Below are positions 1-59,673 of a stretch of DNA of 64,000 bases, in pieces. The notes below the pieces were generated by a model. It worked only from the letters and a program-made list of their open reading frames with translations. It searched no databases and had not been told where the DNA came from. The position numbers and the translations under genes were made by a program. The first letter of the stretch is position 1. Every line of letters starts with the position of its first letter. Source of the stretch: an uncultured Verrucomicrobiota bacterium. Lineage in GTDB: Bacteria; Verrucomicrobiota; Kiritimatiellia; CAIQIC01; Lenti-01. The stretch lies in NCBI GenBank assembly GCA_964399775.1, contig CAYNSH010000007.1, positions 788-64,787 on the forward strand, given 5' to 3'.

Positions 1-2
1 TG

Positions 3-26
3 CGATATCGCGATATCGTGATATCC
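3..26. repeat. Three direct copies of GATATC (palindromic hexamer) spaced 8 bp apart, followed by an AT-rich stretch, upstream of the CBM-protein gene
   Basis: Read directly: gcGATATCgcGATATCgtGATATCc then agtaaaaattgagattaaacagtt. Possible operator/promoter region; the window edge truncates the context. Confidence 0.4.
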
Positions 27-135
27 AGTAAAAATTGAGATTAAACAGTTGCACTGCTCCTGTAAATCGGGCAATCTGCCGGGCATTCGACGGGGTTTGG
101 ACCATTTAAAAATACACCTAAGCAAGGAGCATCGA

Positions 136-3100
136 ATGAAAGCTAAGTGGTTGAGTGGTTTTTTGATCGGAGCGCTGGCGCTCACCGGGGCGGCATACGG
201 GCAGATTCGCGACGTCACCTTCTCGGTGGATATGGCCGTGCAGATCGACTTGAACAACTTCGACCCCGACACCATGGGAGTGGACGTACGCGGGGGATTC
301 AACGGCTGGGGCCAGACGGCTCTGTCCCGCGTCGGCGCAACCACCGTCTATGCCGAAACCGTTGCCATCGAAGGCGACGAAGGCGATCCGGTGAATTACA
401 AGTTCTACTTCAACGGGCCTGACAATTGGGAAAACGCCATTCCCGATCGCAGCTTCCAACTGGGTCCGGCCGGTGAGCCCCAAGTGCTCGATACGGTTTA
501 TTTCGACAACCAGGGCCCGCTGGGGGATGAAGTCACCGCCGATGTCACGTTCTCCGTGAACATGGCCGTTCAGATCGACCTGGGCAACTTCGATCAGGGT
601 ACCGGCGAAGTCCAGATCCGCGGGCCATTCAACGGCTGGGGTGGAACCGCGCTGACCCAAGTGGGAGAAACGACGGTCTATTCCGCGACCCTTTCGGTGA
701 CGGCTCCCGAAGGCTCGGCCGTGCCCCACAAATTCTATATCGTTGGTTTTCCTGTACCAGATGACGGGTATGAATCCGGCGATGACCGCACCTTTGTCAT
801 GGGCGAAGATGGCGTGCCCAATGTCTTGGATACGGTGTACTTCAACAACCAAGGTCCCGTGGGCCCGGAAGTCACCGCCGACGTGACCTTCTCCGTGAAC
901 ATGGGCGTGCGGATTGCGGCCGGCCAGTTCAATCCGGACACGATGGGCGTGGACGTGCGCGGTGATTTCAACGACTGGGGCACCACGGCGCTGGCCCGCG
1001 AAGGCGCCACGACGATCTATTCCGCCACGATTTCCGTCACGGCTCCGGAAGACTCGGCGGTGGAGTACAAGTTTTTTTATGATAGCGGTGAAGAGAATTG
1101 GGAAGACGACCCCAACCGCTCGTTTATCATGGGCGAAGACGGCGTGCCCCAGGTGCTGGATACGGTCTATTTCAACAACGAAGAGCCGGCCGGCGGCCTC
1201 GATCTCTCCGGCACGTGGAACCCGGCGACGACGGGTGACTACGAATTCACCGTCACGCGCAGCGATCCCGGCATCGGCGACGTGATCAACCTCGACAGCG
1301 ACAATCTTCTCGCCGCCACGGTGCCGGCCACGGTCACCTTCGCCGCCGGCGAAGACGAGGCGACCTTCAACGTGACGATTGTTTCCCTGGAAAACGGCGA
1401 TGTCACCATCACGGCGGAGGATCCCGTCAGCGGCGACATGGCCGAATACACGATGCGCATGCCGGGCATGGAGATCGATGGTCCCTGGCAGGTCTATGTC
1501 ATGGGCCCCGTGAATTATACCCTCCGCCGGGTCTACAACATCAGCGGCACGGTCAACTTGAGCAGCTCCGATCCGGGCGTCATGACCGTTCCCGCCACAG
1601 CCACCTTTGCCGGTGACGACGTCGAAACGACCTTCCAGGCCACGGCCGTCGGTTTCGGCGCCACCACCCTGACCGCCACCGATCCGGCCAACGGGATCTT
1701 TGCCCAATTCAATGCCTCCGTCGAGCCGCCCGCCTTGGAGGTCTTTGGCCCGCAGATGGTGTGGACCGGCTCGTCGCCCACCTTTACCGTGGTGCGGTAC
1801 GGGCCCGTCGGCGATGTGGTGAACTTGTCCAGCACGGACGACGCCGTCCTGCAGGTTCCCGCCACCGTGACGTTTGGCTTCGAAGAGGACACCGCCACCT
1901 TCCAGGCCCAAGCCCTCTCCGAAGGCATGGCGACCATCGGCGCCCAGAATGATGACGCCAATGCCGATCCGTGGCCGGTTTCGGTGCTGGATCCGCCGGT
2001 CTTCGTCGCCTATGACGACGCCTCGCTCTATGACGGCGGAGAGTGGACCCCGACCCCGGTGCATGTCACCGGTTTCTCCGATTGGACCGTGGAACTCAGT
2101 CCGGAGATTGAGAACTCCTTCCGCGGCGTCTTCATCGGGGAATCCGCGATCGTCGCCATCAACGAGGCTGGCGTGGCCTTTGGGTTGTACGCCAATTACT
2201 TTGACAGCGATCCGGACCCTCGCCCGGAGGTTAAATTGTTCCGCAGCTTCCCCGGTCCGATGCTGCCCGGCCAGGTTTTCTCCGTGGATGTGGGCTACGA
2301 CTGGAGCAGCGGCGCCAAGGGCTTCCGGCTGTGGGGCAGTTGGGAAGATGCCTTCTACGAGCGCTTCGAGCTGTTCAACTCGGGCAACAACACCTGGTCG
2401 TACAAGCTCGATGGTGACGATGACACCATCACGGTGGTTTGGGATGGGTACATCGAAGGCGGGTTCAAGGGCACCGTCCAGGCGGTTTGCACGGCTCCCA
2501 ACACGTTCGATTTCGGCTTCCAGCGGGCCGGCGGAGAGTGGGTCTGGGTGGAAGACGTGGTCCTGCCCGGCACGATCGACACGATCGAGTTCTACAACTG
2601 GAACGGCGGCACCGGCGATGCGGAGAACTTCTACTTCAACCGCATGTGGCTGACCGAAGCCGACGATCCGGACCCGGCCCTCGAGTTCATCGCCGGCGTT
2701 TGGGACGTCACCGCAACTGGCATGTACGAGTATACCCTGCGCCGCGTGGGTGCGGTGGAAGATGAAATCACCCTCACCAGCGACAATCCGGCGACCCTGT
2801 GGGTGCCGCCTTCCGTCACGTTCGTCGTGGGCGAAGATACGGTCAGCTTCATGGCGGAGGTTCTCGCCCTCGATCAGGGCGACGCCACCATCGAGGCATG
2901 GGATCCCGTCAGCGGAGCCATGGCCGAATTTGTCGTGCGTCCTCGCGAAGAGGAGCCCGGCATCGTCTATCTCGTCTACGACCCCGCCACTCGCGGGATG
3001 TCCTTCACGGCGCCGGCGGATCATACCTTCAGCAGCCTGGAGTGGGCCGACCTGGCGCTGGCGGCGGACCGCGATGGATTCGACTTCGCTCCGATTCCGG

Positions 3101-3204
3101 AAACCCTCTACACCATCGTCAATGGCACGGCGATCATCCACACCGATGAGGTGGGAAGCCCCCGCCGGATGGTGATCCGGGCCCATATCCGGCCGATTCT
3201 CTGA
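136..3204 (+). CDS. Secreted multi-repeat protein: signal peptide, three tandem CBM20-like starch-binding modules, four Ig-like repeats, no obvious catalytic domain
   Basis: ATG at 136 (M30 of the TTG-started ORF 49..3204) gives MKAKWLSGFLIGALALTGAAYGQ, a signal peptide. Three ~110-aa repeats carry VTFSVxM...GxFNGWG...YKF...NWE.DPNRSF...VLDTVYF, which matches the CBM20 signature (YKF...WE.DPNR). Four further ~90-aa repeats follow (P.TVTF..GED.ATF...DP.SG.MAE). Confidence 0.75.
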   Translation: MKAKWLSGFLIGALALTGAAYGQIRDVTFSVDMAVQIDLNNFDPDTMGVDVRGGFNGWGQTALSRVGATTVYAETVAIEGDEGDPVNYKFYFNGPDNWENAIPDRSFQLGPAGEPQVLDTVYFDNQGPLGDEVTADVTFSVNMAVQIDLGNFDQGTGEVQIRGPFNGWGGTALTQVGETTVYSATLSVTAPEGSAVPHKFYIVGFPVPDDGYESGDDRTFVMGEDGVPNVLDTVYFNNQGPVGPEVTADVTFSVNMGVRIAAGQFNPDTMGVDVRGDFNDWGTTALAREGATTIYSATISVTAPEDSAVEYKFFYDSGEENWEDDPNRSFIMGEDGVPQVLDTVYFNNEEPAGGLDLSGTWNPATTGDYEFTVTRSDPGIGDVINLDSDNLLAATVPATVTFAAGEDEATFNVTIVSLENGDVTITAEDPVSGDMAEYTMRMPGMEIDGPWQVYVMGPVNYTLRRVYNISGTVNLSSSDPGVMTVPATATFAGDDVETTFQATAVGFGATTLTATDPANGIFAQFNASVEPPALEVFGPQMVWTGSSPTFTVVRYGPVGDVVNLSSTDDAVLQVPATVTFGFEEDTATFQAQALSEGMATIGAQNDDANADPWPVSVLDPPVFVAYDDASLYDGGEWTPTPVHVTGFSDWTVELSPEIENSFRGVFIGESAIVAINEAGVAFGLYANYFDSDPDPRPEVKLFRSFPGPMLPGQVFSVDVGYDWSSGAKGFRLWGSWEDAFYERFELFNSGNNTWSYKLDGDDDTITVVWDGYIEGGFKGTVQAVCTAPNTFDFGFQRAGGEWVWVEDVVLPGTIDTIEFYNWNGGTGDAENFYFNRMWLTEADDPDPALEFIAGVWDVTATGMYEYTLRRVGAVEDEITLTSDNPATLWVPPSVTFVVGEDTVSFMAEVLALDQGDATIEAWDPVSGAMAEFVVRPREEEPGIVYLVYDPATRGMSFTAPADHTFSSLEWADLALAADRDGFDFAPIPETLYTIVNGTAIIHTDEVGSPRRMVIRAHIRPIL
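211..1203 (+). repeat. Tandem ~335-bp coding repeat x3 (CBM20-like modules) within the 136..3204 CDS
   Basis: Protein repeats start at aa 55, 165 and 278 of the ORF (nt 211, 541, 880) with near-identical motif blocks. The DNA-level tandem duplication is visible (gtcaccttctccgtgaacatg recurs). Confidence 0.7.
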
Positions 3205-3227: not shown

Positions 3228-3267
3228 CCCCCCCCCCGCCGTTATTGCGGCGGGGGGGGGTTTCGTT
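3228..3267 (+). terminator. Rho-independent terminator after the CBM-protein gene
   Basis: 13-bp G/C stem cccccccccgccg / cggcggggggggg with loop ttattg, followed by TTTCGTT, 24 nt after the stop codon. Confidence 0.7.
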
Positions 3268-3369: not shown

Positions 3370-3500
3370 CCCGGGCCGGTTGTCACGGGTTGGGCCCCAT
3401 GCGACGGATGCGGCCAAAACCCCGCCAGGGCCGGAAGGCAGCAACGGTATGGTCGTCGTTCCGGGTGCCGTGGGAATCCTGGCCCGTGACGGCCGGCTCG
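3370..3500 (+). ncRNA. ffs: Signal recognition particle RNA (4.5S/SRP RNA, ffs) candidate
   Basis: CAGGGCCGGAAGGCAGCAAC at 3425..3445 matches the conserved domain-IV motif of bacterial SRP RNA (E. coli CAGGUCCGGAAGGAAGCAGC). Flanking complementary arms GTCACGGG (3382..3389) and CCCGTGAC (3484..3491) close a long helix. The position immediately upstream of dnaX is the classic ffs-dnaX-ybaB-recR arrangement. Ends are approximate. Confidence 0.55.
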
Positions 3501-3537
3501 GCCGGAGCGCGGCCGGCAAGTCATTGGGAGAAACCGC

Positions 3538-5190
3538 ATGGCGTATGAAGTATTGGCGCGAAAATGGCGCCCGCAGCAATTCCAGGACGTGGTCGGCCAG
3601 TCGCACGTCATCCAAACGCTGTCCCGCGCGATCCAGTCCGGGCGGGTGGCGCATGCCTATCTGTTCGTGGGTCCCCGGGGCACCGGCAAGACCACCACCG
3701 CCCGGCTGCTGGCCAAGGCGTTGAACTGCCAGAAGCGCGGCAAGAAATCCGACCCGTGCGACCAGTGCGACTCCTGCCGCGAGATTGTCGCCGGCAACAG
3801 CCTCGATGTGATCGAGATCGATGCGGCCTCCAACACCCAGGTCGACCATGTACGCGAGCTGCGCGACAACGTGCGCTACGCCCCCGCGCGCGGGCCGTTC
3901 AAGGTCTACATCATCGACGAAGTCCACATGTTGAGCACCGGCGCCTTCAATGCCCTGCTCAAGACGCTCGAGGAACCGCCGGCCCACGTCAAGTTCCTGC
4001 TGGCGACGACCGATGTCCACAAGGTGCCGGCCACCATTTTGTCGCGCTGCCAGCGCTTCGATTTGCGGCGGATCGGGCTCAAGGAGATGGTCGGGCGCCT
4101 GGAGGAGATCGTGGCGGCCGAGAAGTGGACGGTCAGCCCGGCGGCCCTGCTGGCGATCGCCCGCGGCGCCGAGGGGGCCTTGCGGGATGCGGAATCCGCG
4201 CTCGACCAGATCGTGTCCTTCCGGGGTGAGACGGTCGAGGAAGCCGATGTGCTGGATGTCTTCGGCCTGGTGGCGTGGACCACCATCGATCGGCTGGCCA
4301 CGGCCGTGCTCCAGGGGAATTCGGCGGAGGTCTTGAAGATCGTCGCCGAGCTGGATGCGGGCGGACGGGATCTTCAGCGGCTCGTGCAGGAACTGCTCGG
4401 CCACTTCCGCCATGTCCTGGTTTGGCTGCACGCGCCGGAATTAGCGGGAACATTCGATTTGACCGAAGCGCAGGTGGAGGGCTTGCGGGCCCAAGCCACG
4501 CTGACCGACAGCGAAAAGCTGCTGCGCGTGGTGGAGATCCTGACCGAAGCGGCCAACCAGTCGCGGTTCGCGCTCTCCCTGCGGACCGTGGTGGAAGTGG
4601 CGTTGCTCAAATGCTCGCGAGCCGCCCGTGTGGTCAGTATTGACGAGTTGATCGCCCGGCTGGAGGCGACATCGGCGGATGGGGGTGCGTCGGCGCCATC
4701 CGCCGTTGAATCCACTTCCCCGGCGCGCCCGGCCAAGGCGCCCAAGCCCCTGCGAAGCCCTCCGGGTGAAGGTGGTGATCTGGCCCACCTGAAACAGCGC
4801 TGGTCGGCCATCCTGAATGAAGTCTCCGAAACCGCCCAGTTGGCGGCGCCCTACCTGAAGGAGGCGGAACCGCTCCGCATGGAGGGCGATCATGTCGTCC
4901 TGGGGTTCGACCCGGAATTCAGCGAGCATCTGAAGCGGGTCCAAACGCCCCGGGCGCAGCAGGCCATCGAGCACGCCCTGACCCATGAGCTGCGCCGCAC
5001 CGTCGGGGTTCGCTACGTCATCGAAGATCGGCCCAAGGTGCCGGTGGCCAGCGCCCCCCCCGCCGAGGCCCCGGCCGCACCGCCTCCTCCGGCCAAAAAA
5101 TCGCCCCCGAAAAACCGATTGGCCAATGATCCGGCGGTCAAGAAAACCATGGAGGTTTTCGAGGCCGAGCTGCTGGACATCCGCGAATAA
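3538..5190 (+). CDS. dnaX: DNA polymerase III subunit gamma/tau
   Basis: MAYEVLARKWRPQQF..VVGQ, Walker A GPRGTGKTT, clamp-loader motifs. Pro/Lys-rich C-terminal tail. Confidence 0.93.
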   Translation: MAYEVLARKWRPQQFQDVVGQSHVIQTLSRAIQSGRVAHAYLFVGPRGTGKTTTARLLAKALNCQKRGKKSDPCDQCDSCREIVAGNSLDVIEIDAASNTQVDHVRELRDNVRYAPARGPFKVYIIDEVHMLSTGAFNALLKTLEEPPAHVKFLLATTDVHKVPATILSRCQRFDLRRIGLKEMVGRLEEIVAAEKWTVSPAALLAIARGAEGALRDAESALDQIVSFRGETVEEADVLDVFGLVAWTTIDRLATAVLQGNSAEVLKIVAELDAGGRDLQRLVQELLGHFRHVLVWLHAPELAGTFDLTEAQVEGLRAQATLTDSEKLLRVVEILTEAANQSRFALSLRTVVEVALLKCSRAARVVSIDELIARLEATSADGGASAPSAVESTSPARPAKAPKPLRSPPGEGGDLAHLKQRWSAILNEVSETAQLAAPYLKEAEPLRMEGDHVVLGFDPEFSEHLKRVQTPRAQQAIEHALTHELRRTVGVRYVIEDRPKVPVASAPPAEAPAAPPPPAKKSPPKNRLANDPAVKKTMEVFEAELLDIRE

Positions 5191-5213
5191 ACCATCGGAA
5201 AGGATTCGAAACG

Positions 5214-5528
5214 ATGAACATGATGAAGATGATGAAGCAGGCCGCGAGCATGCAGAAGAACATGGCCAAGGTTCAGGAGGATCTGGCGTCCATGACGCTG
5301 GAACACCAGAGCGGCGGTGGCGCGGTCACGGTTTCGATCGGTGGCGAAGGAACCGTTCGCGCCATTCGCATCGATCCCAAGGTGGTCGACCCCGCCGATG
5401 TGGAAATGCTCGAAGACCTGGTGCTGACGGCGGTCCAGGGCGCGCAGGAGGCGGCCAAGCTGACCGCCGCGGCGGAAATGCAAAAGGTGACCGCCGGCAT
5501 GGGCCTCCCGCCGGGACTGGGCCTGTAG
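5214..5528 (+). CDS. ybaB: YbaB/EbfC family nucleoid-associated protein
   Basis: 104 aa with typical YbaB N-terminus (MMKQAASMQKNMAKVQEDL), located between dnaX and recR. Confidence 0.9.
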   Translation: MNMMKMMKQAASMQKNMAKVQEDLASMTLEHQSGGGAVTVSIGGEGTVRAIRIDPKVVDPADVEMLEDLVLTAVQGAQEAAKLTAAAEMQKVTAGMGLPPGLGL

Positions 5529-5575
5529 GCCGCGCGAGCGTGGATGGCGGCAAACGCCCCTGAACCTGGCCCGAG

Positions 5576-6169
5576 ATGGATCCCCTTGCACACTTGACCG
5601 AGACCCTGGCGAAGCTGCCGGGATTGGGTCGGCGTTCGGCCGAGCGTCTCGCCGTTCATCTGGCCCGGAATCCTTCCACGATGGCCCGGGATTTGTCGGC
5701 GGCCATCGAGGATGCCCGGGCGCAGTTAGAGGCCTGTCGACTGTGCGGCAGCGTTACGGCCCGTCAGGAAAACCCGTGTCGGCTGTGCTCGGATCCCCGG
5801 CGCGATGCCGCCATCCTGTGCGTGGTCGAGGATCCGGCCGACATCGCCCTGCTGGAGCGAAGCGGGGAATACCACGGACACTATTTCGCGCTGATGGGCA
5901 AGCTGTCGCCCATGCGCGGGGAGGGGATCGGCTCGCTGCGACTTCCAGCCCTCTTGGAGCGCGCGGCCAAGGCCAGGGAAGTGCTGCTGGCGCTGAACAG
6001 CGATGTGGAGAGCGAATCGACCGCGGCATACCTTCGCCACGTTCTCGCCCAAAAGCTGCCCGACCTGGTGATCAGTCGCCTGGCGCTGGGAATCCCGGCG
6101 GGAAGCGCCATTGCCTATTCGGACCCCGTCACCCTCGGTCGGGCCATCCGCGGCCGCACCCCAACCTGA
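5576..6169 (+). CDS. recR: Recombination protein RecR
   Basis: Helix-hairpin-helix (HhH) N-terminus (LPGLGRRSAERLAVHL), C4 zinc finger CRLCGSV..CRLC, Toprim region; conserved synteny. Confidence 0.92.
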   Translation: MDPLAHLTETLAKLPGLGRRSAERLAVHLARNPSTMARDLSAAIEDARAQLEACRLCGSVTARQENPCRLCSDPRRDAAILCVVEDPADIALLERSGEYHGHYFALMGKLSPMRGEGIGSLRLPALLERAAKAREVLLALNSDVESESTAAYLRHVLAQKLPDLVISRLALGIPAGSAIAYSDPVTLGRAIRGRTPT

Positions 6170-6299
6170 GTGCCTGTGGGGCCAGCCGCCCCACGGTCTT
6201 GCGTCGCGGGCTCGCGCGCCGTAGCCTCGGCGAAGGCGGGGGGCAACCGGTGACTTCCTCACCGCACCAGGTGGTGGGGCCCGCTCGAATCTATTCCGT

Positions 6300-6340
6300 T
6301 GCTTCATGCGGGAGATGTGGTATACATGGGCAGGTAAAAC
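6300..6340 (+). promoter_or_regulatory. Putative sigma70-like promoter for the DUF2760-like/Hsp70 module (TTGCTT-N16-TATACA) with a GAAGG ribosome-binding site at 6358
   Basis: Read in the 197-nt gap between recR and the 6367 start. Weak. Confidence 0.25.
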
Positions 6341-6366
6341 GTTTTATTCGATGGAGGTGTTGAAGG

Positions 6367-6876
6367 ATGAGAAGACTATTTCAAGCGTTTCAGGCCTTTT
6401 TTCGTGTGTTGCGCGACGCTCAATTCGCACAACTTGTGGCCGCAGGACCGCAATCCGCGGCGACACCGCAGGCAACGGTCCGGAGCCCCGGCACCCGTCA
6501 CGGTGCGCTTGGACTGCTGTCCGCCCTGCAGCGTGAGGCGCGTTTGGTGGATTTTCTGAAGGAACCGATCGGCGACTATCCGGATGCCCAGGTGGGCGCG
6601 GCGGTCCGCGAGGTTCACCGGCAGGCCGGAGCGGTTCTGGACCGGATGTTTGCCCTGCAACCCGTACTGAATCGTTCCGAGGGTGAAACGATAACGGTCG
6701 AGGCGAACCGCAATCCCGCCCGGGTTCAACTGGCGGGGCCGGTTTCCGGCAATCCCCCTTATCGCGGTACCCTGTGCCATCACGGTTGGCTGGCGACTCG
6801 CTGCGACGTCCCGGAATGGACCGGACGGGAAGAGGATGCCCTGGTCGTCGCCCCGGCGGAAGTCCAAATCGCTTGA
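6367..6876 (+). CDS. DUF2760-like protein (uncharacterised; typically linked to atypical Hsp70 genes)
   Basis: N-terminus MRRLFQAFQAFFRVLRDAQFAQLVAAG resembles the DUF2760 (PF10816) signature as I recall it. Sits directly upstream of the two Hsp70-like genes. Confidence 0.55.
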   Translation: MRRLFQAFQAFFRVLRDAQFAQLVAAGPQSAATPQATVRSPGTRHGALGLLSALQREARLVDFLKEPIGDYPDAQVGAAVREVHRQAGAVLDRMFALQPVLNRSEGETITVEANRNPARVQLAGPVSGNPPYRGTLCHHGWLATRCDVPEWTGREEDALVVAPAEVQIA

Positions 6877-7032
6877 ACCTCATGCAAAACTCCGGCCCAA
6901 ACGGTCGGGACGGAGCCCGGCCCTCCAGTCTGCCGTCCCATGGGCCGGTTTTCGCCTGTGGAGAGACGATCTTCGTGTCGTCCAGACGATTCGATTTCAT
7001 AGTGACGTTCTGGCCCGAGCCACGGGCCGCCT

Positions 7033-8832
7033 GTGGAGCATAAGATGAAAGCAACCTATTCCGTTGGTATTGACCTGGGCACCACCAACAGCGTGATCGC
7101 CTCGGTGGCGTTGAACGATCCGGCGGCCGCCGTGGAACTGCTGCCCATTCCGCAACTGACTGCGGCAGGCACGGTGGAAAACCTTCCCATGCTGCCGTCG
7201 TTCCTCTATCTGGCAACCCCGGCGGAGCGCGGGCACCACGACTTGCCATGGGCCGCGGACCGTGAACTGGCGGTCGGGGAGTGGGCGCGGCGCCAGGCCG
7301 CCAGCGTCCCCACCCGAACTGTCGCCGCGGCCAAATCCTGGCTGTGCCACAGCCGGGTGGACCGCTCCAAACCCATTCTGCCCTGGAACGCCCCGGACGA
7401 CGTGCCCAAGGTTTCGCCGGTCGAAGCCACGCAGCGCTACCTGGAGCATTTGCTCGAGGCCTGGAATGCCGCGCACCCGGAGGCCCCCTTGAAGCAGCAG
7501 TTGGTCACGTTGACCGTACCGGCCTCGTTCGATGCCAGCGCGCGCGACCTGACCCGCGAAGCGGCCCGGCGGGCGGGACTGCCCAAGGAGTTGGTTCTGC
7601 TGGAGGAGCCGCAAGCCGCGCTCTATGCCTGGCTGGCGACCACCGGCGAATCGTGGCGGCGGCGGCTGGCCGTGGGAGATGTCCTGCTGGTTTGCGACGT
7701 GGGCGGCGGCACCACCGATTTTACGCTGATCCGAGTGGAAGAGGCCGATGGCGACCTGCAACTGACACGCGTCGCCGTGGGCAACCACATCCTGGTTGGC
7801 GGCGACAACATGGACTTGGCCCTGGCCCACCTGGCCAAGGCCGCTTTCCAGGAAAAGGGCATCGAGATGGATGCCTGGCAGTCCGTCGCCCTGTGGCATT
7901 CGTGCCGTCTGGCCAAGGAATCGCTGCTGACCGATGGCGGTCCGGAAGTCTTTCCGGTGACCGTACTGGGGCGGGGACGTCGCGTGGTCGGCGGAACGGT
8001 CAGCGTTGATCTCCATCGTCGCCAGGTGTTGGAGACCCTGTCGGAGGGCTTTCTGCCAGCGTGCGAACTGGGGGCGGAACCGGCATCGCGCCGGGCCTCG
8101 GGATTCCGCGAACTGGGCCTGCCCTTCGAAACCGATGCGGCCATCACGCGCCACTTGTCGCGGTTTTTGTCGCGTCATGCCGCGGAGGGCGATGCGCCGG
8201 TTCGCCCGACCCATATCGTCTTCAATGGCGGCGTCTTCAAGGCGGACGCCTTGCGGTCGAGGCTGGGGGACATCTTCCGCGACTGGTTTGGGGCAGAGGG
8301 CGCCCCGGCGGTCCTGGAGGGCAGCCTGGACCTCGATTTTGCCGTGGCGCGGGGCGCCGCGCACTACGGGCGCACGAAAGTCAGTGGCGGCATTCGCATT
8401 CGTGGCGGCACCGCCCGCGCGTATTACGTCGGCATTGAGTCGTCCGGCCCCGCCGTGCCGGGCGCCGAACGCCCCCTGCGGGCTCTGTGCGTGGTGCCTC
8501 ATGGCATGGAGGAAGGCACCGAGGCCCAGGTGCCCGGCGGCGAAATCGGCCTGGTCGTGGGTGAACCGGCTCAGTTCCGGTTCTTCAGTTCCCCGGTGCG
8601 CAAGGATGATCGGCCCGGCGACCTGATCGAACAGTGGCCGGAGGGCGATCTGGTCGAAACGGATTCCATGGAAACGGTCCTGCCGGCGGCCGCCGGAAGC
8701 GAAGAGGGCTATGTCCCCGTCCGCTTCGAATCGCGCATCACCGAGCTGGGCGTCTTTGAACTCTGGTGCGTCAGCACGGGTTCGGATGAACGCTGGAAGC
8801 TCGAATTCAGCGTGCGGGATCCAGAGACCTGA
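7033..8832 (+). CDS. Hsp70-family ATPase, non-canonical (short; no standard DnaK substrate-binding/lid domain)
   Basis: Nucleotide-binding-domain motifs IDLGTTNSVIA, LVCDVGGGTTDFTLI, GGDNMDLA. 599 aa. No dnaJ/grpE nearby. Confidence 0.85.
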   Translation: MEHKMKATYSVGIDLGTTNSVIASVALNDPAAAVELLPIPQLTAAGTVENLPMLPSFLYLATPAERGHHDLPWAADRELAVGEWARRQAASVPTRTVAAAKSWLCHSRVDRSKPILPWNAPDDVPKVSPVEATQRYLEHLLEAWNAAHPEAPLKQQLVTLTVPASFDASARDLTREAARRAGLPKELVLLEEPQAALYAWLATTGESWRRRLAVGDVLLVCDVGGGTTDFTLIRVEEADGDLQLTRVAVGNHILVGGDNMDLALAHLAKAAFQEKGIEMDAWQSVALWHSCRLAKESLLTDGGPEVFPVTVLGRGRRVVGGTVSVDLHRRQVLETLSEGFLPACELGAEPASRRASGFRELGLPFETDAAITRHLSRFLSRHAAEGDAPVRPTHIVFNGGVFKADALRSRLGDIFRDWFGAEGAPAVLEGSLDLDFAVARGAAHYGRTKVSGGIRIRGGTARAYYVGIESSGPAVPGAERPLRALCVVPHGMEEGTEAQVPGGEIGLVVGEPAQFRFFSSPVRKDDRPGDLIEQWPEGDLVETDSMETVLPAAAGSEEGYVPVRFESRITELGVFELWCVSTGSDERWKLEFSVRDPET

Positions 8833-8839
8833 TCGCCGC

Positions 8840-11575
8840 ATGAGCGAATCCGCCAGCCGTCCGCCGCGCTATGCGGTGGGCATCGATTTGGGCACCACCC
8901 AGTCCGCCATGGCGTTTGTCGACCGGAAGGGGGCCGGGCGCATCGAGGATATTCGGATTCCGCAGGTCGTCGCGCCGGGCGTCACCGAGGCACGCGATAC
9001 GCTGCCGTCGTTCCTGTATGAAGCGGCCCCCGGCGAGGTGAAGGCCGGTGCGTTCAATCTGCCGTGGAGTTCGGACGGGCAAACACGCGTGGCGGGCTGG
9101 TGGGCCCGCGAGCGCGGTGCGGCGATGCCGGGACGCCTGGTGGCCTCCGCCAAATCCTGGCTGTGCCATGCGGGCGTGGACCGTACCGCGCCGATCCTGC
9201 CCTGGCATGGCGCCCCCGAGGTGAACCGCCTTTCCCCGGTCGATGCCGCCGTCCACTTCCTGGCGCACATGCGCGGGGCCTGGAACCACGCCCATCCGTC
9301 CCATCCCCTCGAACACCAGGATGTGGTGGTGACGATTCCGGCATCGTTCGATGAGGTGGCGCGGGAACTGACCGCCGAGGCGGCCGCGCGCGCCGGCCTG
9401 GAGCAGGCCCTCTTGATCGAAGAACCCCAGGCCGCATTCTATGCCTGGATGGCGGAACAACCCGAAGGGGGGAGCGGGTCCATTCCGCCCGGCCAGCTTG
9501 TCCTGGTTTGCGACATCGGCGGAGGGACCACCGACTTGACCTTGATCGAAACCGTTCCGGATGGAGACCGCGGCGTGTCGTTCCGGCGAATCGCCGTCGG
9601 CGACCACTTGATCCTGGGCGGCGACAACCTGGATCTGGCCCTGGCCTATCATCTGGAGCCGCGGGTGGCGGGGGGGCGCAAGCTGGATGCACGGCAATGG
9701 GGCATGCTGGTGCGGCAATGCTGTGCGGCCAAGGAACGGCTGCTGGGCGCGGAAGCGCCCGAGACGATGATCCTGTCGCTGCCGTTCGGCGGAAGCCGTA
9801 TAGTCGGCGGCAGTGTCCAGGTCGAACTCTCCCGCGCCGAAGCCATCGACGTGCTGGTGGATGGCTTTCTGCCGATGGTGCCGCCGGATGCCGAACCGTC
9901 CCGCACCGGGTCCGGCTTTCGGGAGTTCGGCCTGCCCTATGCGGCCGATGCCGGCATCACCCGCTATCTGGCCGACTTCCTGCGGCGGCAGGCCGGGCGG
10001 ATGCCGGACGCCGTTTTGTTGAATGGCGGATTCTTTGAATCGCCGGTATTGCGAAACCGTCTGATGGAGGTGTTGGCGTCGTGGTGTCCGACCGGCCATC
10101 CGCCGCGGGTGCTGGCGAATGCCCGCCTGGATCGGGCGGTGGCCCGCGGTGCGGCCCATTATGGCCTTGTCCGCCGCGGGCAGGGCCCGAGGATCCATTC
10201 TGGCCTGCCGCGCGCCTATTACGTCGGGGTGGCGAATGCGGAAGGGCGCTCGGGGGGTGTCGTTTGCGTGGCCCCCGCGGGCTTGGAAGAAGGCGAGGGC
10301 GTCGAGACCCCCGGGGCCCGCTTCGAAGTGTTGGTGCGCCAGCCCGTTGAGTTCCAGTTGGTGGCATCCACCACGCGCACGACCGATCAGGCGGGGGACC
10401 GGCTGGAATACGATCCTGCCCAAGTCACTCCGCTGCCGCCCATGCGCACCGTTCTGCAAACCGGCAAGAAAGCGGTGCGCTCTAGGGTGCCGGTGGGTCT
10501 GTACTGCCGCGCAACCGAGATCGGTACCTTTGAAATCTGGTGCCGGGAGCAGGGCGGTCCGCGTCAATGGCGTCTGCAATTCGATCTGCGCGCACGCCGT
10601 CCAGATGGCGAGACCGCGGCCGCCGGCGCAGGCGACACGCTCGAAGAAGCGGTGGTGTCCGCCTGCGGCGATGCGATTCGCGCGGCGTTGGCCGGTTCTG
10701 CGGAAGCCCTGGCGACCCTCCCGCGCGCGCTCGAAAGCGCCGCCGGGATTCCGCGCCCCGACTGGCCCCCGCAACTGCTTCGTCGCCTCTGGGAGGATCT
10801 GATGGCACGGCGCGAAGATCGTCGCGCCAGCCCGGCCCACGAGTCTCGCTGGCTGAACCTGGCCGGCTTTTGCCTGCGGCCGGGATTCGGGAGGGTACTG
10901 GATGATTGGCGCGTCGAAGAGATCTGGAAACTCTATTCCCAGGGCGTCCAGAATCCCCGGAATGAATTGTGCCGCGCCGAATGGTGGATTCTCTGGCGGC
11001 GCGTGGCCGGCGGACTGGATGACGGACGCCAATTGGCCTTGGCCGAGCCGCTGCTGGGACGCCTCAAGGCCCATCGCGGCACATTCGGTTGCGGGGGACA
11101 CGAGTCGGCCGAAATCTGGCGGCTCTTGGCCTGTTTGGAGCGGCTCCCGCTTGATATTCGCCGCTCGCTTGGCGAACGGCTCCGCGACCGCATCGCCCGC
11201 AAGGGGTGGGGCAGCGATCACGGATCCGCGTCCTGGGCCCTGGCCCGCCTGGCCTCCCGCGTTCCATTCTATGGCTCCCTTCAGGGCGTGATCGAACCCG
11301 AACAAGTCGCCCAATGGCTTCCTGCGTTGCTGGCGGCTTCGTCCCCTTCAACGGAAAACCTGTTCCAGGTCGCGCTCATGGTCCGACGCACCGGCGACCG
11401 CTACCGCGACGTGGATGACGGCATCCGCGCCCAGGTCATGCCATGGCTCAGGAAACACCACGCCGCCGATCATCTGCTGGAGCTCGTTGAACAGGGTGGG
11501 GAGCTGGATTCCCGCGAGCAAGTGCAGGCCTCCGGCGACACCCTGCCCCTGGGCCTGCGCTGGCTGGGCCCTTGA
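8840..11575 (+). CDS. Hsp70-family ATPase paralog with ~500-aa C-terminal extension of unknown function
   Basis: Start at the ATG 7 nt after the upstream stop (M44 of ORF 8711..11575; MSESASRPPRYAVGIDLGTTQSAMA). Motifs VCDIGGGTTDLTLI. Alignable blocks with the upstream Hsp70 (PSFLY..AKSWLCH..PILPW..PASFD). The C-terminal ~500 aa is Trp/Arg/Leu-rich and non-Hsp70. Confidence 0.85.
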   Translation: MSESASRPPRYAVGIDLGTTQSAMAFVDRKGAGRIEDIRIPQVVAPGVTEARDTLPSFLYEAAPGEVKAGAFNLPWSSDGQTRVAGWWARERGAAMPGRLVASAKSWLCHAGVDRTAPILPWHGAPEVNRLSPVDAAVHFLAHMRGAWNHAHPSHPLEHQDVVVTIPASFDEVARELTAEAAARAGLEQALLIEEPQAAFYAWMAEQPEGGSGSIPPGQLVLVCDIGGGTTDLTLIETVPDGDRGVSFRRIAVGDHLILGGDNLDLALAYHLEPRVAGGRKLDARQWGMLVRQCCAAKERLLGAEAPETMILSLPFGGSRIVGGSVQVELSRAEAIDVLVDGFLPMVPPDAEPSRTGSGFREFGLPYAADAGITRYLADFLRRQAGRMPDAVLLNGGFFESPVLRNRLMEVLASWCPTGHPPRVLANARLDRAVARGAAHYGLVRRGQGPRIHSGLPRAYYVGVANAEGRSGGVVCVAPAGLEEGEGVETPGARFEVLVRQPVEFQLVASTTRTTDQAGDRLEYDPAQVTPLPPMRTVLQTGKKAVRSRVPVGLYCRATEIGTFEIWCREQGGPRQWRLQFDLRARRPDGETAAAGAGDTLEEAVVSACGDAIRAALAGSAEALATLPRALESAAGIPRPDWPPQLLRRLWEDLMARREDRRASPAHESRWLNLAGFCLRPGFGRVLDDWRVEEIWKLYSQGVQNPRNELCRAEWWILWRRVAGGLDDGRQLALAEPLLGRLKAHRGTFGCGGHESAEIWRLLACLERLPLDIRRSLGERLRDRIARKGWGSDHGSASWALARLASRVPFYGSLQGVIEPEQVAQWLPALLAASSPSTENLFQVALMVRRTGDRYRDVDDGIRAQVMPWLRKHHAADHLLELVEQGGELDSREQVQASGDTLPLGLRWLGP

Positions 11576-13368: not shown

Positions 13369-15315
13369 ATGGTAATCAAGCCCATGGTTGAATTCCAAAA
13401 AGTCCACAAGCACCATGGCCGGCAAGCCGTGCTGGACGGGGTGGATCTGCGCCTGCTGGCCGGGGAACGGGTGGGACTGGTGGGACCGAATGGCGCTGGC
13501 AAAACCACGATCTTCGATCTGATCGCCGGCGAAGCGGAGCCGGATTCCGGGGGGGTGGTGCGCGCCAAAAACATCCGGCTGGGCTATCTTCGGCAGCATG
13601 TCAGCCCGGAAGGGCACGCAATGCCCATTCGGGAATACGTCGAAAAAGCCGCCCCGGACCTGGAAACCATCTGCGAGGAGATCCACCAGATCGAATCCAC
13701 GTTGGCGGACGACCCGGCCGGGGAATCCCGGACCCGGCTACGCCGGCTGGGCGAGTTGCAGACCCAGTTTGAACTGCAGGGGGGCTATGATGTCCAGGCG
13801 CGCACGGCGGCCGCCCTGGCGGGGTTGGGATTCCCTCCGTCCGACCTGGAGCGGCCCCTGGGTGATTTTTCGGGTGGATGGCAGATGCGCGTCGAGCTGG
13901 CGCGAGCCCTGATGGCGGAGCCGGACCTGCTGCTGCTGGACGAGCCCAGCAATTACCTCGATCTGCCAGCCGTTGAATGGCTCCGCCGCCGACTGGAAGG
14001 CTTTCGCGGCACCCTGGCCATGATTTCCCACGACCGGTATCTGCTGGAGAACCTGTGCGATATCACCTTCGAGGTGGCCGGCGGTCACGTGACCCGCTAC
14101 CCCGGCCGCTATTCGTGGTATGCCCGCGAACGCGAGAAGCGCCGGGAGATTTCCCTGGCCCGGCACGCCAACGAGGAACGCCGGCGCGCCGAGATCGAGC
14201 GCTATGTGGAGCGCTTTCGCGCCAAGGCCACCCTGGCCGCGCAGGTGCAAAGCCGCATCAAGATGCTGGAGAAAATGGAGCGCACGCCAGTGGTGGACGT
14301 CGTTCGCGGCCGGGGTCGTTTCCGGTTGGCCAAGCCCCCGCATTGCGGACAGGAGGTTCTGCGCTGCGACGGCATGGGGTTCCGGTACGATGAACGCCAT
14401 TGGATCTTCCGCAGTGTCGACCTGTCGATTCAGAAAGGCGAGAAGCTGGCGGTGGTCGGACCCAACGGCGCGGGAAAAACCACGCTGCTGCGCGTGATGG
14501 CCGGCCAATTGGCTCCAAGGGAAGGAGCGTGCAAGATCGGACACCGGGTCGTGCCGGGTTATCAAAGCCAGGAGGTGGCCGACACCATGGATCCGACCCG
14601 GACGTGCCTCGACATTCTCAAGGCGGTGGCGCCGGATGCCGCCGAATCGGAACTGCGCACGCTGCTGGGCGGGTTCGGTTTTTCCGGCGAGGCCGTGGAG
14701 AAACGGGTTCAGGTTCTTTCCGGCGGCGAACGGATCCGGTTGGCGTTTGCTCGGATTCTGATCCGTCCGCCCAACCTTCTTCTGCTTGATGAGCCGACCA
14801 CGCACCTGGATATCGAAAGCCGCGAAGCGCTCCAGGATGCCTTGGAAAACTACGGGGGGACCGTGGTGCTGGTATCCCACGATGTGACCTTCGTGCGCGC
14901 CGTGGCTCAAGGCATTGTGGCGGTGACGCCGGACGGCGGCGGCGTCCGGCGTTTTGCCGGGGGGTACGATTACTATTGCGAACTCAATGCCCGCGAGGGC
15001 GGTCTGTCCGCCGCGGCCCCGGCCGTGGTCGATCCGGAAAAAAGCCAGCGGCAGGCCGCCTTTCAAGATCGCCGGTCGCGCAAGGGCGCGCTGAGGAAGG
15101 CCGATAAAGAAGTCCTTGCGCTGGAGCAGGAGATTGAGCGGCTGGAGATGGGGCTCTCCGCCCTGCACGATTCCTTGGCGGCGCCCGACACCCCCGAGGC
15201 GCAACGGGCGGAGGACGGGCGTGCCTTGCGCCGCCTGGAGGATCAGTTGAACCAGCGCCTGGCCGAGTGGGAGGAAGCCGGCCGGCGGCGCGATGAACTC
15301 GCCGGCGAGTCGTGA
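13369..15315 (+). CDS. ABC-F family ATPase (tandem ABC domains, no transmembrane region)
   Basis: Two Walker A sites (GPNGAGKTT x2), two LSGG signatures, inter-domain linker and C-terminal coiled coil. Confidence 0.88.
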   Translation: MVIKPMVEFQKVHKHHGRQAVLDGVDLRLLAGERVGLVGPNGAGKTTIFDLIAGEAEPDSGGVVRAKNIRLGYLRQHVSPEGHAMPIREYVEKAAPDLETICEEIHQIESTLADDPAGESRTRLRRLGELQTQFELQGGYDVQARTAAALAGLGFPPSDLERPLGDFSGGWQMRVELARALMAEPDLLLLDEPSNYLDLPAVEWLRRRLEGFRGTLAMISHDRYLLENLCDITFEVAGGHVTRYPGRYSWYAREREKRREISLARHANEERRRAEIERYVERFRAKATLAAQVQSRIKMLEKMERTPVVDVVRGRGRFRLAKPPHCGQEVLRCDGMGFRYDERHWIFRSVDLSIQKGEKLAVVGPNGAGKTTLLRVMAGQLAPREGACKIGHRVVPGYQSQEVADTMDPTRTCLDILKAVAPDAAESELRTLLGGFGFSGEAVEKRVQVLSGGERIRLAFARILIRPPNLLLLDEPTTHLDIESREALQDALENYGGTVVLVSHDVTFVRAVAQGIVAVTPDGGGVRRFAGGYDYYCELNAREGGLSAAAPAVVDPEKSQRQAAFQDRRSRKGALRKADKEVLALEQEIERLEMGLSALHDSLAAPDTPEAQRAEDGRALRRLEDQLNQRLAEWEEAGRRRDELAGES

Positions 15316-15343
15316 ATCCAGGCGTCCATGGCGCCAAGCGCCT

Positions 15344-16993
15344 TCAGGTGGATTCGCCCAGATGGCGGGGAAGAAAGAGGCGGAAGCAGGCGCCTTTCTC
15401 TTCCGCACTTTCCACCTCGATGAATCCGCCATTTTGATGGACGATTCCGTAAACCGTGGCCAGGCCCAGGCCTGTTCCGGCCTGCTTGCCTTTGGTACTG
15501 AAGAAGGGTTCGAAGATATGCTCGACGGTTTGCGGGGCCATGCCACAGCCGGTGTCTCGGAATGACAGGCACACGAAATCCCGAGCGGCCGCCGGCAAAT
15601 TCCCGGGCAGGGGTGGGGAACCGTCGGGTACGTTGTATAGACGGATTTCGATGGTTCCCGAGCCTTGGATGGCATCGACCGCGTTGACGCAGAGATTGGT
15701 GAAGATCTGCTGGACTTGGCCTGGATCCATGCAAATGGGCCATAGCCGTTGCAGCATGGGCAGGATGTCCCGGGCAGAAGCCTCCAGGTCAATCTCGAGG
15801 GGGGCGATCGGCTGTCGCCGCGCAAATCCCAGTAGTTGGCGGGTGATGTCCAGCGATCGCAGCGCGGCCCGGTGGATTTCATGGATCTCGACGGCAACGG
15901 ACGAGGCCGGATCCACCTGTTGCTCGGCCAGTTCCACGGAGCCGAGGATGATCTGGAGAATATTGTTGAAATCATGGGCGATGCCACCGGCCAGCAGGCC
16001 GATGGATTCGAGCTTCTGGGCCTGGCGGAGCTGGGCTTCGGCCCACTGCTCCTCCGTGATGTCGCGGACCACGCCAAAAGAGCGCACGGGCCGGCCTTGA
16101 TCGTCACGCACCAGCGTATACTGCTCGCGCAACTGGCGGACTTTGCCGTTGTCAGGTCGGATGATGCGGTGATCCATGACATGGGTGGGGAGGGGAGCCG
16201 CCAGCGCCTGCTGGTAGTCGGCCGCCGCCTGATCGCGATCATCCGGATGCACCAGGGCCATGAAGGATTCATAGGTCTCGTGCCCCTGGTGCGGCGGTAC
16301 GCCAAAGATCCGGAACGTCTCGTCGGACCAGAACAGGCGATTCGTCGTCACCTCGTATTCCCAACTGCCAATGCCGGTCAGCCGTTGCGCCTGGGCCATC
16401 TGCATCTGCAGGCGCTGGAGATCCGCTTCTCGACGCTTGCGATCCGTCACATCGGAAACTGTGGACAACAGGCGCATATCGTCCATCAGCGTAATCCGCG
16501 CCTCAAAATACCGGGGACCGTCCGGCAATTCCAGCGGGTACTCGACGACCCGCATCTGCCGGGTTGCCATGACCTCCGCATAGGCATTCAGGAATAGCGT
16601 GGCCAGGGGTTCGGGATGGATCTCGCGAATGGATTTCCCGAGAAATTTCGATGGTGGGAGGGCGAACAGCGTGGGGTCGTGCGAATGGCAATCCAAATAG
16701 ATCCCATCCTGACTGACGACGAAAATCAAGTCGGGAGAGGCCTGGAGGATGGCCTTGAGTCGGCTTTCCCGATCGCGGAGCGATGTTTCCAGTTGCGAGA
16801 CGTTGGACGGATGCTCTTGCCCCCCGGGCGAAGGCGTGTCCGCTGTTGGGCGGCCTTTGCCGTTCTGCGAAAATTTGCGCTTCTCTCCAGGCGTTCGTGT
16901 CACGGACGTTCCCTCTCCATCCAATCCGGCGGGCCACTTCCCTGTGCCGGGCCTCAGCGTGCGTAGTATAGAGGATGAAGGCGCGTCCGGCAC
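15344..16993 (-). CDS. PAS-domain sensor histidine kinase (orphan)
   Basis: Two PAS-like regions, H-box HDFNNILQIILG, HATPase_c motifs (DTGCGM, GTGLGLATV). The N-terminal ~60 aa is low complexity, so the true start may be internal. Confidence 0.8.
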   Translation of the reverse strand: MPDAPSSSILRTLRPGTGKWPAGLDGEGTSVTRTPGEKRKFSQNGKGRPTADTPSPGGQEHPSNVSQLETSLRDRESRLKAILQASPDLIFVVSQDGIYLDCHSHDPTLFALPPSKFLGKSIREIHPEPLATLFLNAYAEVMATRQMRVVEYPLELPDGPRYFEARITLMDDMRLLSTVSDVTDRKRREADLQRLQMQMAQAQRLTGIGSWEYEVTTNRLFWSDETFRIFGVPPHQGHETYESFMALVHPDDRDQAAADYQQALAAPLPTHVMDHRIIRPDNGKVRQLREQYTLVRDDQGRPVRSFGVVRDITEEQWAEAQLRQAQKLESIGLLAGGIAHDFNNILQIILGSVELAEQQVDPASSVAVEIHEIHRAALRSLDITRQLLGFARRQPIAPLEIDLEASARDILPMLQRLWPICMDPGQVQQIFTNLCVNAVDAIQGSGTIEIRLYNVPDGSPPLPGNLPAAARDFVCLSFRDTGCGMAPQTVEHIFEPFFSTKGKQAGTGLGLATVYGIVHQNGGFIEVESAEEKGACFRLFLPRHLGEST

Positions 16994-19338: not shown

Positions 19339-20228
19339 GCCCTGAGATGATCGACCGCCACCCGCGAAAGATCGCCGCACCCCAGGTTGCGTTCATGCGC
19401 CAGGCGGATGTGGGCAATGTCAAATGGCTCGCGGTCGAACAGCGTGGCGCAATAGGCGTCGACGGCCACGGGATCCGTCCCGAATACAAGCTGGTCCTTG
19501 GCCTCCAGACGCCCGGGGCCGCGTGGCCCGTTGGTGGTCATGATCCGCAGGGCGTCCACGATGATCAAATTGGCCCGAATCACCGTATTGCAGTCGACAA
19601 TGCATTCGTTCAAGCCCTCGCGGTGGAAGAATCCCCGGTCGCGAACCGACCCCAGCCAGTTTTTCATGCTGAGGGTCAGCCCGGCGCCGCCGTGGGTCTT
19701 GGCCACGGGCATGTTGATCAGGCAGCCCGTCTGCAAAACATCGCGAGCGACCTCGACCTGCCGGAGAACCGTTCCGCGGGGAACGGGAATGTTCACGAAG
19801 TCGGCATCGCTCTCCAGCGCGTAGAGCTGGGCCCCGGTGCGTTTCGCCACGGCGGACATCCCGCTCATTTCAAAACTGTTGCGGGCGGGGGAGCAGGGGT
19901 TCTCAGGAAGAACAACCGAGTTCGCTCCCGCCTGCTGGCAGGCGCGGATGCAGGCTTCCACCAGAACTGGGTTGGTGTTGGCGGCCTGTGCGGGGGTGGA
20001 GGCCCAGGCGATGTTGGGCTTGAGCGTGGCCGGTTTCCCCGCACGAATGAACGCGGGCCACCCCCCGAGGGCTTCCACGCCGCGTGACAACATGCCCGGG
20101 ATATCGGTTCCGTGGACCGCCACCACCCGCGACACCGGGGCGACCGTCTCGGCGAACAGCCGGCGAACGCCCAGGGCCGCTCCGGCAACGGCGGCCACCG
20201 AGTGTTGGAGAAAGTGTCTACGATCCAT
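19335..20228 (-). CDS. DUF362-domain protein with twin-arginine (TAT) signal
   Basis: MDRRHFLQHSVAAVAGAALG is a TAT signal. DUF362-like core (VAVHGTDIPGM..., LKPNIAW...). Start at M35 of ORF 19335..20330. Confidence 0.6.
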   Translation of the reverse strand: MDRRHFLQHSVAAVAGAALGVRRLFAETVAPVSRVVAVHGTDIPGMLSRGVEALGGWPAFIRAGKPATLKPNIAWASTPAQAANTNPVLVEACIRACQQAGANSVVLPENPCSPARNSFEMSGMSAVAKRTGAQLYALESDADFVNIPVPRGTVLRQVEVARDVLQTGCLINMPVAKTHGGAGLTLSMKNWLGSVRDRGFFHREGLNECIVDCNTVIRANLIIVDALRIMTTNGPRGPGRLEAKDQLVFGTDPVAVDAYCATLFDREPFDIAHIRLAHERNLGCGDLSRVAVDHLRA

Positions 20229-36205: not shown

Positions 36206-36272
36206 TTGACTCCCGCTTTCATGCATTCCACCCCCCCTACTTATACCGCCCAAACCGCCAAATCAAGCCTAT

Positions 36273-52424: not shown

Positions 52425-52502
52425 GGAAAGCTCACGGCCGCCGTCGGCGGCGGTGCGGATGGTTCGAACGGACCGCGAACCGCTCTGCCTTGATTGACCC
52501 GA

Positions 52503-52967: not shown

Positions 52968-53100
52968 GGCGATGCTCCTACGGATTAAAGGGTGAAGGGT
53001 CAACCGTTGATAGATATATTGCAACTCTCTTCGGGTGGAAAGACAATTTCCGCATCAAGACCTTTTGCATTTTCCCGATTCTACAGTAGCCTACTGGACC

Positions 53101-59672: not shown

Positions 59673-59673
59673 C

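Follow-up and report, generated by a model that had tools for sequence, protein, structure and literature searches.

Here we describe a gene at positions 136–3204 (plus strand) of a 64,000-nucleotide stretch of DNA (the window) from an uncultured Verrucomicrobiota bacterium of the Kiritimatiellia (GenBank assembly GCA_964399775.1, contig CAYNSH010000007.1). We propose, at a probability of roughly 0.6, that its 1022-aa product, from an uncultured member of the Planctomycetes–Verrucomicrobia–Chlamydiae (PVC) bacteria, is exported by the Sec route and acts as a multivalent glycan binder without catalytic activity. From the N-terminus, the protein consists of a signal peptide, three repeats resembling carbohydrate-binding modules (CBMs; C1–C3), three immunoglobulin (Ig)-like repeats (I1–I3), a domain here called X, a fourth Ig-like repeat (I4) and a C-terminal domain (CTD). 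Hidden Markov models (HMMs) built from relatives recover exactly these units and none elsewhere in the window. A recognisable catalytic domain or motif is absent from the whole protein. Together with this absence, the domain map, the clan of the N-terminal repeats, their retention of starch-binding site 1 and the folds of X, I4 and the CTD are the directly supported parts of the proposal.

In the proposed mechanism, three CBM20/CBM48 modules, each with the aromatic and polar set of site 1, would bind alpha-1,4-glucan (starch, glycogen, maltodextrin) with avidity. The Ig-like repeats would act as rigid spacers, X, of concanavalin A (ConA)-like fold, would provide a second, different glycan-binding site, and the C-terminal Ig-like domain would tether the whole chain, either on the envelope or on a partner. 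Four elements of this scheme are conditional: the identity of the ligand, glycan binding by X, the destination of the protein and the function of the CTD.

The N-terminal repeats

Judged from sequence profiles, the three ~110-aa repeats fall within the CBM20/CBM48 clan of starch-binding modules, a more exact placement than the CBM20-like label given in a first-pass annotation of the same DNA. Scans of the full protein against Pfam and NCBIfam returned two CBM matches only, both from Pfam: CBM_48 at aa 265–326 (23.9 bits, cutoff 22.4 bits) and, below its cutoff of 23.3 bits, CBM_20 at aa 292–335 (19.5 bits). The CBM_48 match is marginal because C3 scanned in isolation scores only 19.1, and assignment to the clan appears safer than assignment to a single family. 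Searched against all sequences in the Protein Data Bank (PDB), a profile of 29 diverse repeats from relatives ranked the starch-binding domain of Aspergillus niger glucoamylase first (1AC0, E=1.1e-4), followed by CBM20 of cyclodextrin glucanotransferase (CGTase, ~5e-4) and CBM48 of GlgB (1e-3), with AMPK-beta CBM48 and, separately, Stbd1 lower in the same list. No other fold, the alternative that the first-pass annotation had raised, ranked above the CBM20/CBM48 structures. When the 29 repeats were scanned individually, CBM_20 (best E=3.5e-9) and CBM_48 each matched 8, AMPK1_CBM matched 3 and the pullulanase X25 module (X25_BaPul_like) matched 2. Relatives of the repeats also co-occur with CBM26, CBM53 and X25.

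The 'YKF..WE.DPNR' signature on which the CBM20-like label had rested holds up in the HMM alignment to 1AC0, where the Lys of YKF corresponds to K578, the Trp-Glu of NWE to W590-E591 and the PNR to N595-R596; the Trp of FNGW corresponds to W543. In the literature, starch-binding site 1 of the A. niger enzyme is made up of W543, K578, W590, E591 and N595. All three repeats keep the site-1 set, with Tyr for W590 in C2 and Asp for N595 in C1 and C2. Over 255 repeats of the family, the equivalent of W543 is Trp in 77%, that of K578 Lys in 81%, that of W590 aromatic in 73%, that of E591 Glu in 80%, that of N595 Asn or Asp in 77% and that of R596 Arg in 94%. CBM20 site 2 (Y527, Y556), by contrast with site 1, has no recognisable counterpart in the 1AC0 alignment, in which Y556 falls on an insert state and the Y527 region lies beyond the aligned stretch.

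The repeats could instead have lost carbohydrate binding and serve only as structural or protein-binding beta-sandwiches. The weak HMM scores, the unrecognisable site 2 and the replacement of the second aromatic by V, I or L in many family repeats fit this, but the query repeats keep a complete or nearly complete site-1 set, and no other polar or aromatic positions are as well conserved as those of site 1 over the 255 repeats. We regard such a loss of binding as highly improbable.

Compared with CBM20 (1AC0, CGTase domain E) and CBM48 (the N-domain of GlgB, the glycogen-binding domain of AMPK-beta), the repeats share profile-level homology and the site-1 residues. They differ in being ~10 residues longer at the N-terminus, with a conserved 'M.VQI..G.F.P.T', and in never being joined, in this family, to GH13, GH15 or a kinase; they form arrays of 1–10 copies in proteins without catalytic domains. 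In precomputed annotation, none of 120 relatives carries a catalytic Pfam domain. Two relatives, P0016 (1079 aa) and P0043 (1250 aa), consist of 9–10 tandem CBM20/48-like repeats plus the same CTD and nothing else, and many of their repeats have an aliphatic residue in place of the second site-1 aromatic.

C1–C3 are 56–60% identical as protein, with 46 invariant columns. At the DNA level, direct repeats at 210–363, 540–693 and 879–1032 are 72–73% identical at spacings of 330 and 339 nt, although Tandem Repeats Finder did not report them. The first-pass annotation had described a tandem duplication recent enough to be visible in the DNA; it is visible, but it is not recent. Each of C1–C3 is 74–85% identical to its positional counterpart in other genomes versus 59–60% to its sister repeats, and the triplication therefore predates the lineage splits. 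An orthologue may hold a single one of these repeat types, two of them or all three, and the sequence comparison indicates that copy number shifts by loss or gain of whole modules.

Domain X

An AlphaFold2 (AF2) model of X, built with 20 homologues, is all-beta (pLDDT 85.8, pTM 0.86). A Foldseek search of the model against the PDB gave 135 matches at E<=1e-3, all of them ConA-like jelly rolls, and on the strength of the model we confidently predict this fold for X. The structural neighbours include the Aap lectin domain, Emp46/47, ERGIC-53, VIP36, galectins and calreticulin on one side and, among enzymes, the PL20 endo-glucuronan lyase 2ZZJ (E=7.5e-6) and GH16-like mycobacterial glucanases on the other; enzymes and lectins score alike, with TM-scores of 0.4–0.53 at ~11% identity. 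X thus shares its fold with the ConA-like superfamily (the L-type lectins Emp46/47, ERGIC-53 and VIP36, galectins, the Aap lectin domain, GH16 and PL20), but it shows no detectable sequence kinship with it, lacks the GH16 motif and has a conserved motif of its own. No sequence match to X was found in Pfam, NCBIfam or the PDB, the last also with a 39-sequence profile.

The family is large and undescribed. With clusters defined at 50% identity, an exhaustive HMM search with X found 1236 cluster representatives at E<=1e-3, of which 697 also pass E<=1e-10. X occurs between a signal peptide and PEP-CTERM in proteins of ~260 aa, with FGE-sulfatase, with a type IX secretion system (T9SS) tail and with CBM-like repeats, and some single proteins hold arrays of 2–4 X domains interleaved with Ig repeats. 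A set of 160 non-redundant X domains shows conservation of D627, Y632, G646, F647, W650 (100%), F682, R703 (100%), G712, G726, G729, Y820 and N835, in a family motif D.A.NY....W.NGsNgG.GFG.W ... R.F ... G.kG ... YFNnL. D627 is the sole conserved acid, and there is no conserved Glu or His in this set. A regular-expression search of X found no GH16 ExDxxE motif (E-x-D-x-(x)-E). The subgroup to which the query's X belongs has lost N631, G640, N642, G644, N722 and D724, which are otherwise conserved in the family.

In some relatives X stands at the N-terminus in place of the CBM pair, which suggests that X and the CBM pair are interchangeable 'heads'. Because of its multiplicity per protein, this swap and the lack of a catalytic acid pair, X looks like a binding module. 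Its spread over Ig-interleaved arrays, small PEP-CTERM proteins and T9SS-tailed proteins is likewise what binding modules typically show.

The alternative is that X is catalytic, a beta-jelly-roll polysaccharide lyase or glycosidase, and that the protein is an enzyme carrying three CBM20-like modules. The PL20 lyase and GH16-like glucanases head the Foldseek matches; R703, Y632 and W650 are invariant or nearly so, and D627 and N835 are strongly conserved. Jelly-roll lyases employ Arg, Tyr, His or Gln, and a lyase mechanism through the invariant Arg and Tyr could operate in X. Yet the TM-scores are low, lectins equal the enzymes in structural score, neither ExDxxE nor a conserved Glu or His is present, X occurs in 2–4 copies per protein and on small PEP-CTERM proteins, and the query subgroup lacks the six family-conserved residues named above. 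Catalysis by X therefore seems improbable, if less so than the loss of binding by the repeats.

The first-pass annotation had seen no catalytic domain in the protein, while allowing for one hidden at aa 650–880. X lies there, with a ConA-like fold and no GH16 motif. A regular-expression search of the protein found no GH16-type or GH13-type motif, and X has no conserved acid pair; with PL20 and GH16-like enzymes beside lectins among the best structural neighbours of X, the claim is no more than probable.

Two other origins of X were rejected. For a degenerate pair of CBM repeats, a jackhmmer search seeded with aa 616–870 did draw in CBM repeats, because of drift through the flanking Ig repeat; the trimmed seed, aa 622–848, gave at convergence 78 X domains, from 60 proteins, and no CBM, and the CBM and X profiles align at an hhalign probability of 0.7%. 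For kinship with the flocculation protein PepA, small X plus PEP-CTERM proteins score 24–25 bits with NCBIfam floc_PepA against a cutoff of 80, and the likeness comes from the PEP-CTERM tail, since X domains without the tail give no floc_PepA match.

Ig-like repeats and the C-terminal domain

From profile matches and the model of I4, the ~88-aa repeats appear to be Ig-like sandwiches. They are 36–45% identical to the first copy, and one DNA pair, 1320–1447 and 2802–2929 (I1 versus I4), is 72% identical over 128 nt. The best PDB match of the Ig-repeat profile is an S-layer Ig domain of the SbsC type (4UJ7/4UID, E=6e-4). Big_2 matches 10 of 40 relatives (best 8.5e-5), with no match for the query repeat itself. 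An AF2 model of I4 plus the CTD (pLDDT 91.4) shows two consecutive beta-sandwiches, of which I4 is a seven-stranded one; its Foldseek matches are weak and generic (E >= 3.8e-4; pilus chaperones, ASH/MSP domains and Fabs, all two-domain Ig-like). The Ig-like label of the first-pass annotation is supported by the S-layer profile match, by Big_2 in the relatives and by the sandwich model of I4. Its count of four ~90-aa repeats and a ~230-aa domain is likewise right, but the order is three repeats, the 227-aa X and then the fourth, and the final 82-aa CTD had been overlooked.

The CTD is found in 57 of the 120 relatives, at the extreme C-terminus every time and with a length of 75–82 aa, and the proteins that bear it include those otherwise built solely of 9–10 CBM-like repeats. 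Neither Pfam nor NCBIfam gave a match for it, and there is no further copy in the window or its flanks. A CTD profile search for homologous proteins returned 2 fragments only, where a comparable search with the CBM profile returned 3. A diverged Ig-like repeat was considered as its origin and rejected (hhalign probability 0.3%).

From its terminal position, and from the T9SS tail that occupies the same place in relatives from the Fibrobacteres–Chlorobi–Bacteroidetes (FCB) group, we infer that the CTD may serve as an attachment or export tag. These relatives, CBM20-array proteins of Ignavibacteria/FCB (P0086–P0100), have the same type of tandem repeat, no catalytic domain and a C-terminal beta-sandwich in the same position; their tail is Por_Secre_tail (PF18962), whereas that of the query is a different, family-specific domain. 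Known signals of this kind were not detected in the query: PEP-CTERM, T9SS, LPXTG and MYXO-CTERM gave no Pfam or NCBIfam match in the whole protein or in its last 82 aa, and no hydrophobic segment that could form a C-terminal transmembrane helix was found. Dockerin and cohesin had no Pfam match in the query either.

Gene structure and export

The coordinates and the secretion signal of the first-pass annotation are right; its length of 1020 aa falls two residues short. The open frame spans 49–3204. Translation starts at the ATG at 136, because a Shine-Dalgarno sequence precedes it (Table 1) and orthologues share the leader MK..WL...ALAG.A.GQ at the same position, followed by 'RDVTF'; the orthologue leaders all end in G/A-Q ahead of that motif. 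The signal peptide as read from the sequence contains no Cys, and a lipobox is thus absent. Beyond it the 1022-aa protein has no hydrophobic or transmembrane segment. With the conserved signal peptide and no other hydrophobic segment, the protein is predicted to be Sec-exported. The mature protein, of 999 aa, is extremely acidic and poor in Lys (pI 4.05): 156 Asp+Glu stand against 32 Arg and only 7 Lys, and there is just one Cys.

At window positions 2–25, ~110 nt 5' of the start codon, GCGATATC occurs three times in tandem, each copy with the palindrome GATATC; the array might serve as an operator or belong to a promoter. A search upstream of the gene detected no sigma-70-like promoter.

Table 1. 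Features of the gene, its product and the 3' region, in window coordinates.
Feature	Amino acids	Position (nt)	Strand	Basis or remarks
Shine-Dalgarno sequence AAGGAG		124–129	+	6 nt ahead of ATG 136; read from sequence
Sec-type signal peptide, MKAKWLSGFLIGALALTGAAYG followed by Q	1–23	136–204	+	n-h-c layout, shared by orthologues; judged from sequence
CBM20/48-like repeat 1 (C1)	24–134	205–537	+	site-1 equivalents W58, K89, W98, E99, D104, R105
CBM20/48-like repeat 2 (C2)	135–247	538–876	+	site-1 equivalents W168, K199, Y212, E213, D217, R218
CBM20/48-like repeat 3 (C3)	248–356	877–1203	+	site-1 equivalents W281, K312, W322, E323, N327, R328
Ig-like (Big_2-like) repeats I1–I3	357–444, 445–533, 534–621	1204–1998	+	contiguous; profile matches
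Domain X (227 aa)	622–848	1999–2679	+	AF2 model, Foldseek, family profile
Ig-like repeat I4	849–940	2680–2955	+	after X; repeat profile and AF2 model
Family-specific C-terminal domain (CTD, 82 aa)	941–1022	2956–3201	+	small beta-sandwich, pLDDT 80–92, second of two
Intrinsic-terminator-like hairpin		3229–3260, with tail to 3270	+	14 bp, 13 G-C, loop TTAT
Bacterial small signal recognition particle (SRP) RNA gene (ffs)		3388–3487	+	RF00169, 65.5 bits, E=3e-13

Genomic context

The gene is monocistronic, as the first-pass annotation had held: the upstream gene is divergent, a hairpin follows the stop codon, and an SRP RNA gene lies between it and dnaX. The hairpin stem is followed by TTTCGTT (stretch TTTCGTTCGG), and the 3' region has a folding energy of -53.9 kcal/mol (z = -4.4 versus shuffles). 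The 334-nt gap 3' of the protein gene is not empty, because the SRP RNA gene sits there at the head of an ffs-dnaX-ybaB-recR series. Upstream and divergent are genes for a phosphoglucomutase/phosphomannomutase, a hypothetical protein, a family 4 glycosyltransferase (GT4), an asparagine synthase (AsnB) and an epimerase. A Pfam scan found neither SusC/D nor a glycoside hydrolase among the 20 largest open reading frames (ORFs) of the window, and the gene is not part of a starch-utilisation locus.

This setting bears on the main rival, in which the protein plays a structural part at the surface, in a matrix or as an adhesin, in the manner of an S-layer protein or aggregation factor, and its modules bind the exopolysaccharide of the cell or its neighbours and not dietary starch. 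A monocistronic gene with a strong terminator would suit such a protein, as would the very acidic mature chain with its few Lys and lone Cys and the S-layer protein at the top of the Ig-repeat profile's PDB matches. The genomic context is housekeeping or cell-envelope and never a polysaccharide utilisation locus (PUL), and in two genomes a giant LamG/TSP3/RCC1 protein stands ahead of the gene. X is also common on PEP-CTERM proteins, a group implicated in floc formation and retention of extracellular polymeric substances (EPS; PMC9850573). On the other hand, the protein has no SLH or other known S-layer anchoring domain, the site-1 residues of CBM20/48 are specifically the alpha-glucan-binding ones, and the likeness to floc PepA is due to the PEP-CTERM tail alone. 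We consider this rival unlikely; catalysis by X and loss of binding by the repeats are less likely still.

In four relatives (L004, L005, L006 and L011, ~3500–7900 in each) the gene is preceded by genes for a PAS-SpoIIE phosphatase, a hypothetical protein (280–470 aa) and a cyclophilin-type peptidyl-prolyl isomerase (PPIase, 410–563 aa). This conserved trio may reflect a functional link, perhaps to a folding factor. In two others (L009, 1–7804; L010, 457–7829) it stands behind the giant LamG/TSP3/RCC1-repeat protein (2100–2800 aa) and a hypothetical protein of 307–334 aa, which suggests a cell-surface gene neighbourhood.

Three metagenome contigs, up to 180 kb long, encode the identical protein, and a genome-contig search with the single protein found two loci only, both in metagenome-assembled genomes (MAGs). 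Named relatives are annotated as 'hypothetical protein' in MAGs of Kiritimatiellia, Lentisphaerae and Verrucomicrobia, the closest being from Kiritimatiellia and 'Lentisphaerae' MAGs. A literature search found no link of Kiritimatiellia with CBM20.

Elsewhere in the window, five large ORFs of 529–922 aa with high GC3 (13738–16305 on the minus strand, 19837–21642 on the plus strand, and 33485–36253, 58158–59747 and 61514–63460 on the minus strand) have no Pfam match at E<=1e-5 and contain no X, CBM-like, Ig-like or CTD module. Downstream of recR, at 6367–11575 (+), a DUF2760 gene precedes a non-canonical pair of Hsp70-family genes, of which the second carries DUF3731. Local G+C dips to 0.576 at 52001–54000, versus 0.61–0.68 elsewhere.

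Discussion

Several points weigh against a glycan-binding protein exposed at the cell surface. C3 is the sole repeat with a direct Pfam match, the query scores are marginal, site 2 is not recognisable, and the beta-sandwich fold of the CBM-like repeats (~100 aa) is presumed from homology only. X has enzymes among its structural neighbours and an invariant Arg and a Tyr that could serve a lyase. A type I signal peptide by itself would carry a diderm's protein no further than the periplasm, so that surface exposure is an assumption. Among the 20 largest ORFs of the window, across the upstream 10 kb and at the loci of six relatives, no amylase, pullulanase or transporter was found nearby, and a nutrient-capture role is consequently unsupported by context; the sole amylase-family neighbour is a cytoplasmic GlgB beside the relative P0058. 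The surface polysaccharide capture put forward in the first-pass annotation is at most a possibility, given that the protein has no lipobox, PEP-CTERM, T9SS tail or transmembrane segment and no amylase or PUL-like context.

We nevertheless favour the exported, multivalent glycan-binding protein, for which there are precedents. SusE and SusF of Bacteroides thetaiotaomicron are non-catalytic and carry two and three tandem starch-binding CBMs, respectively (PMC4173775). They resemble the query as non-catalytic multi-domain proteins with tandem CBMs in a Gram-negative organism, but they are encoded in the Sus locus with SusC, SusD and SusG, whereas the query has neither a lipobox nor a PUL context; it has instead a ConA-like domain, a distinct CTD and CBMs of the CBM20/48 clan. 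In Ruminococcus bromii, Sas6 and Sas20 are described as secreted non-catalytic starch-binding proteins made of CBMs and spacers (10.1101/2022.11.20.514607; PMC9112005); Sas6 (CBM26 and CBM74) and Sas20 assemble into amylosome complexes. The query differs in having no dockerin or cohesin and in its PVC diderm host, although its distant relatives P0081 and P0082 do carry dockerin/cohesin. By analogy, the protein most plausibly works like SusE/SusF, or else like the Sas proteins. Lacking a lipobox, a PUL and a dockerin, it falls outside both groups, and its architecture is an unannotated variant of the known non-catalytic multi-CBM protein and not fundamentally new.

A more far-reaching version of the proposal is possible, though we regard it as doubtful. 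X would found a new family of CBMs or lectins, counting no fewer than 1236 clusters (50% identity) in PVC and FCB surface proteins with PEP-CTERM, T9SS or CTD, the Kiritimatiellia proteins would be bivalent cross-linkers whose CBM20/48 array holds alpha-glucan and whose X holds a second glycan at the cell surface, and the CTD would be a new attachment or export tag.

Non-catalytic multi-CBM proteins decide which bacteria hold starch and glycogen, and research on them has been confined almost entirely to Bacteroides and Ruminococcus of the gut. If the proposed function is true, the principle would extend to uncultured Kiritimatiellia of digesters and wastewater, where anchoring would follow another logic and a PUL would be lacking. 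If starch binding is wrong, CBM20/48-like arrays would serve something besides nutrient capture. The more useful by-product is X, a ConA-like module that is widespread yet has no solved relative and is modelled neither in Pfam nor in NCBIfam, which makes it a target for CBM and lectin discovery; the family-specific CTD is a further one.

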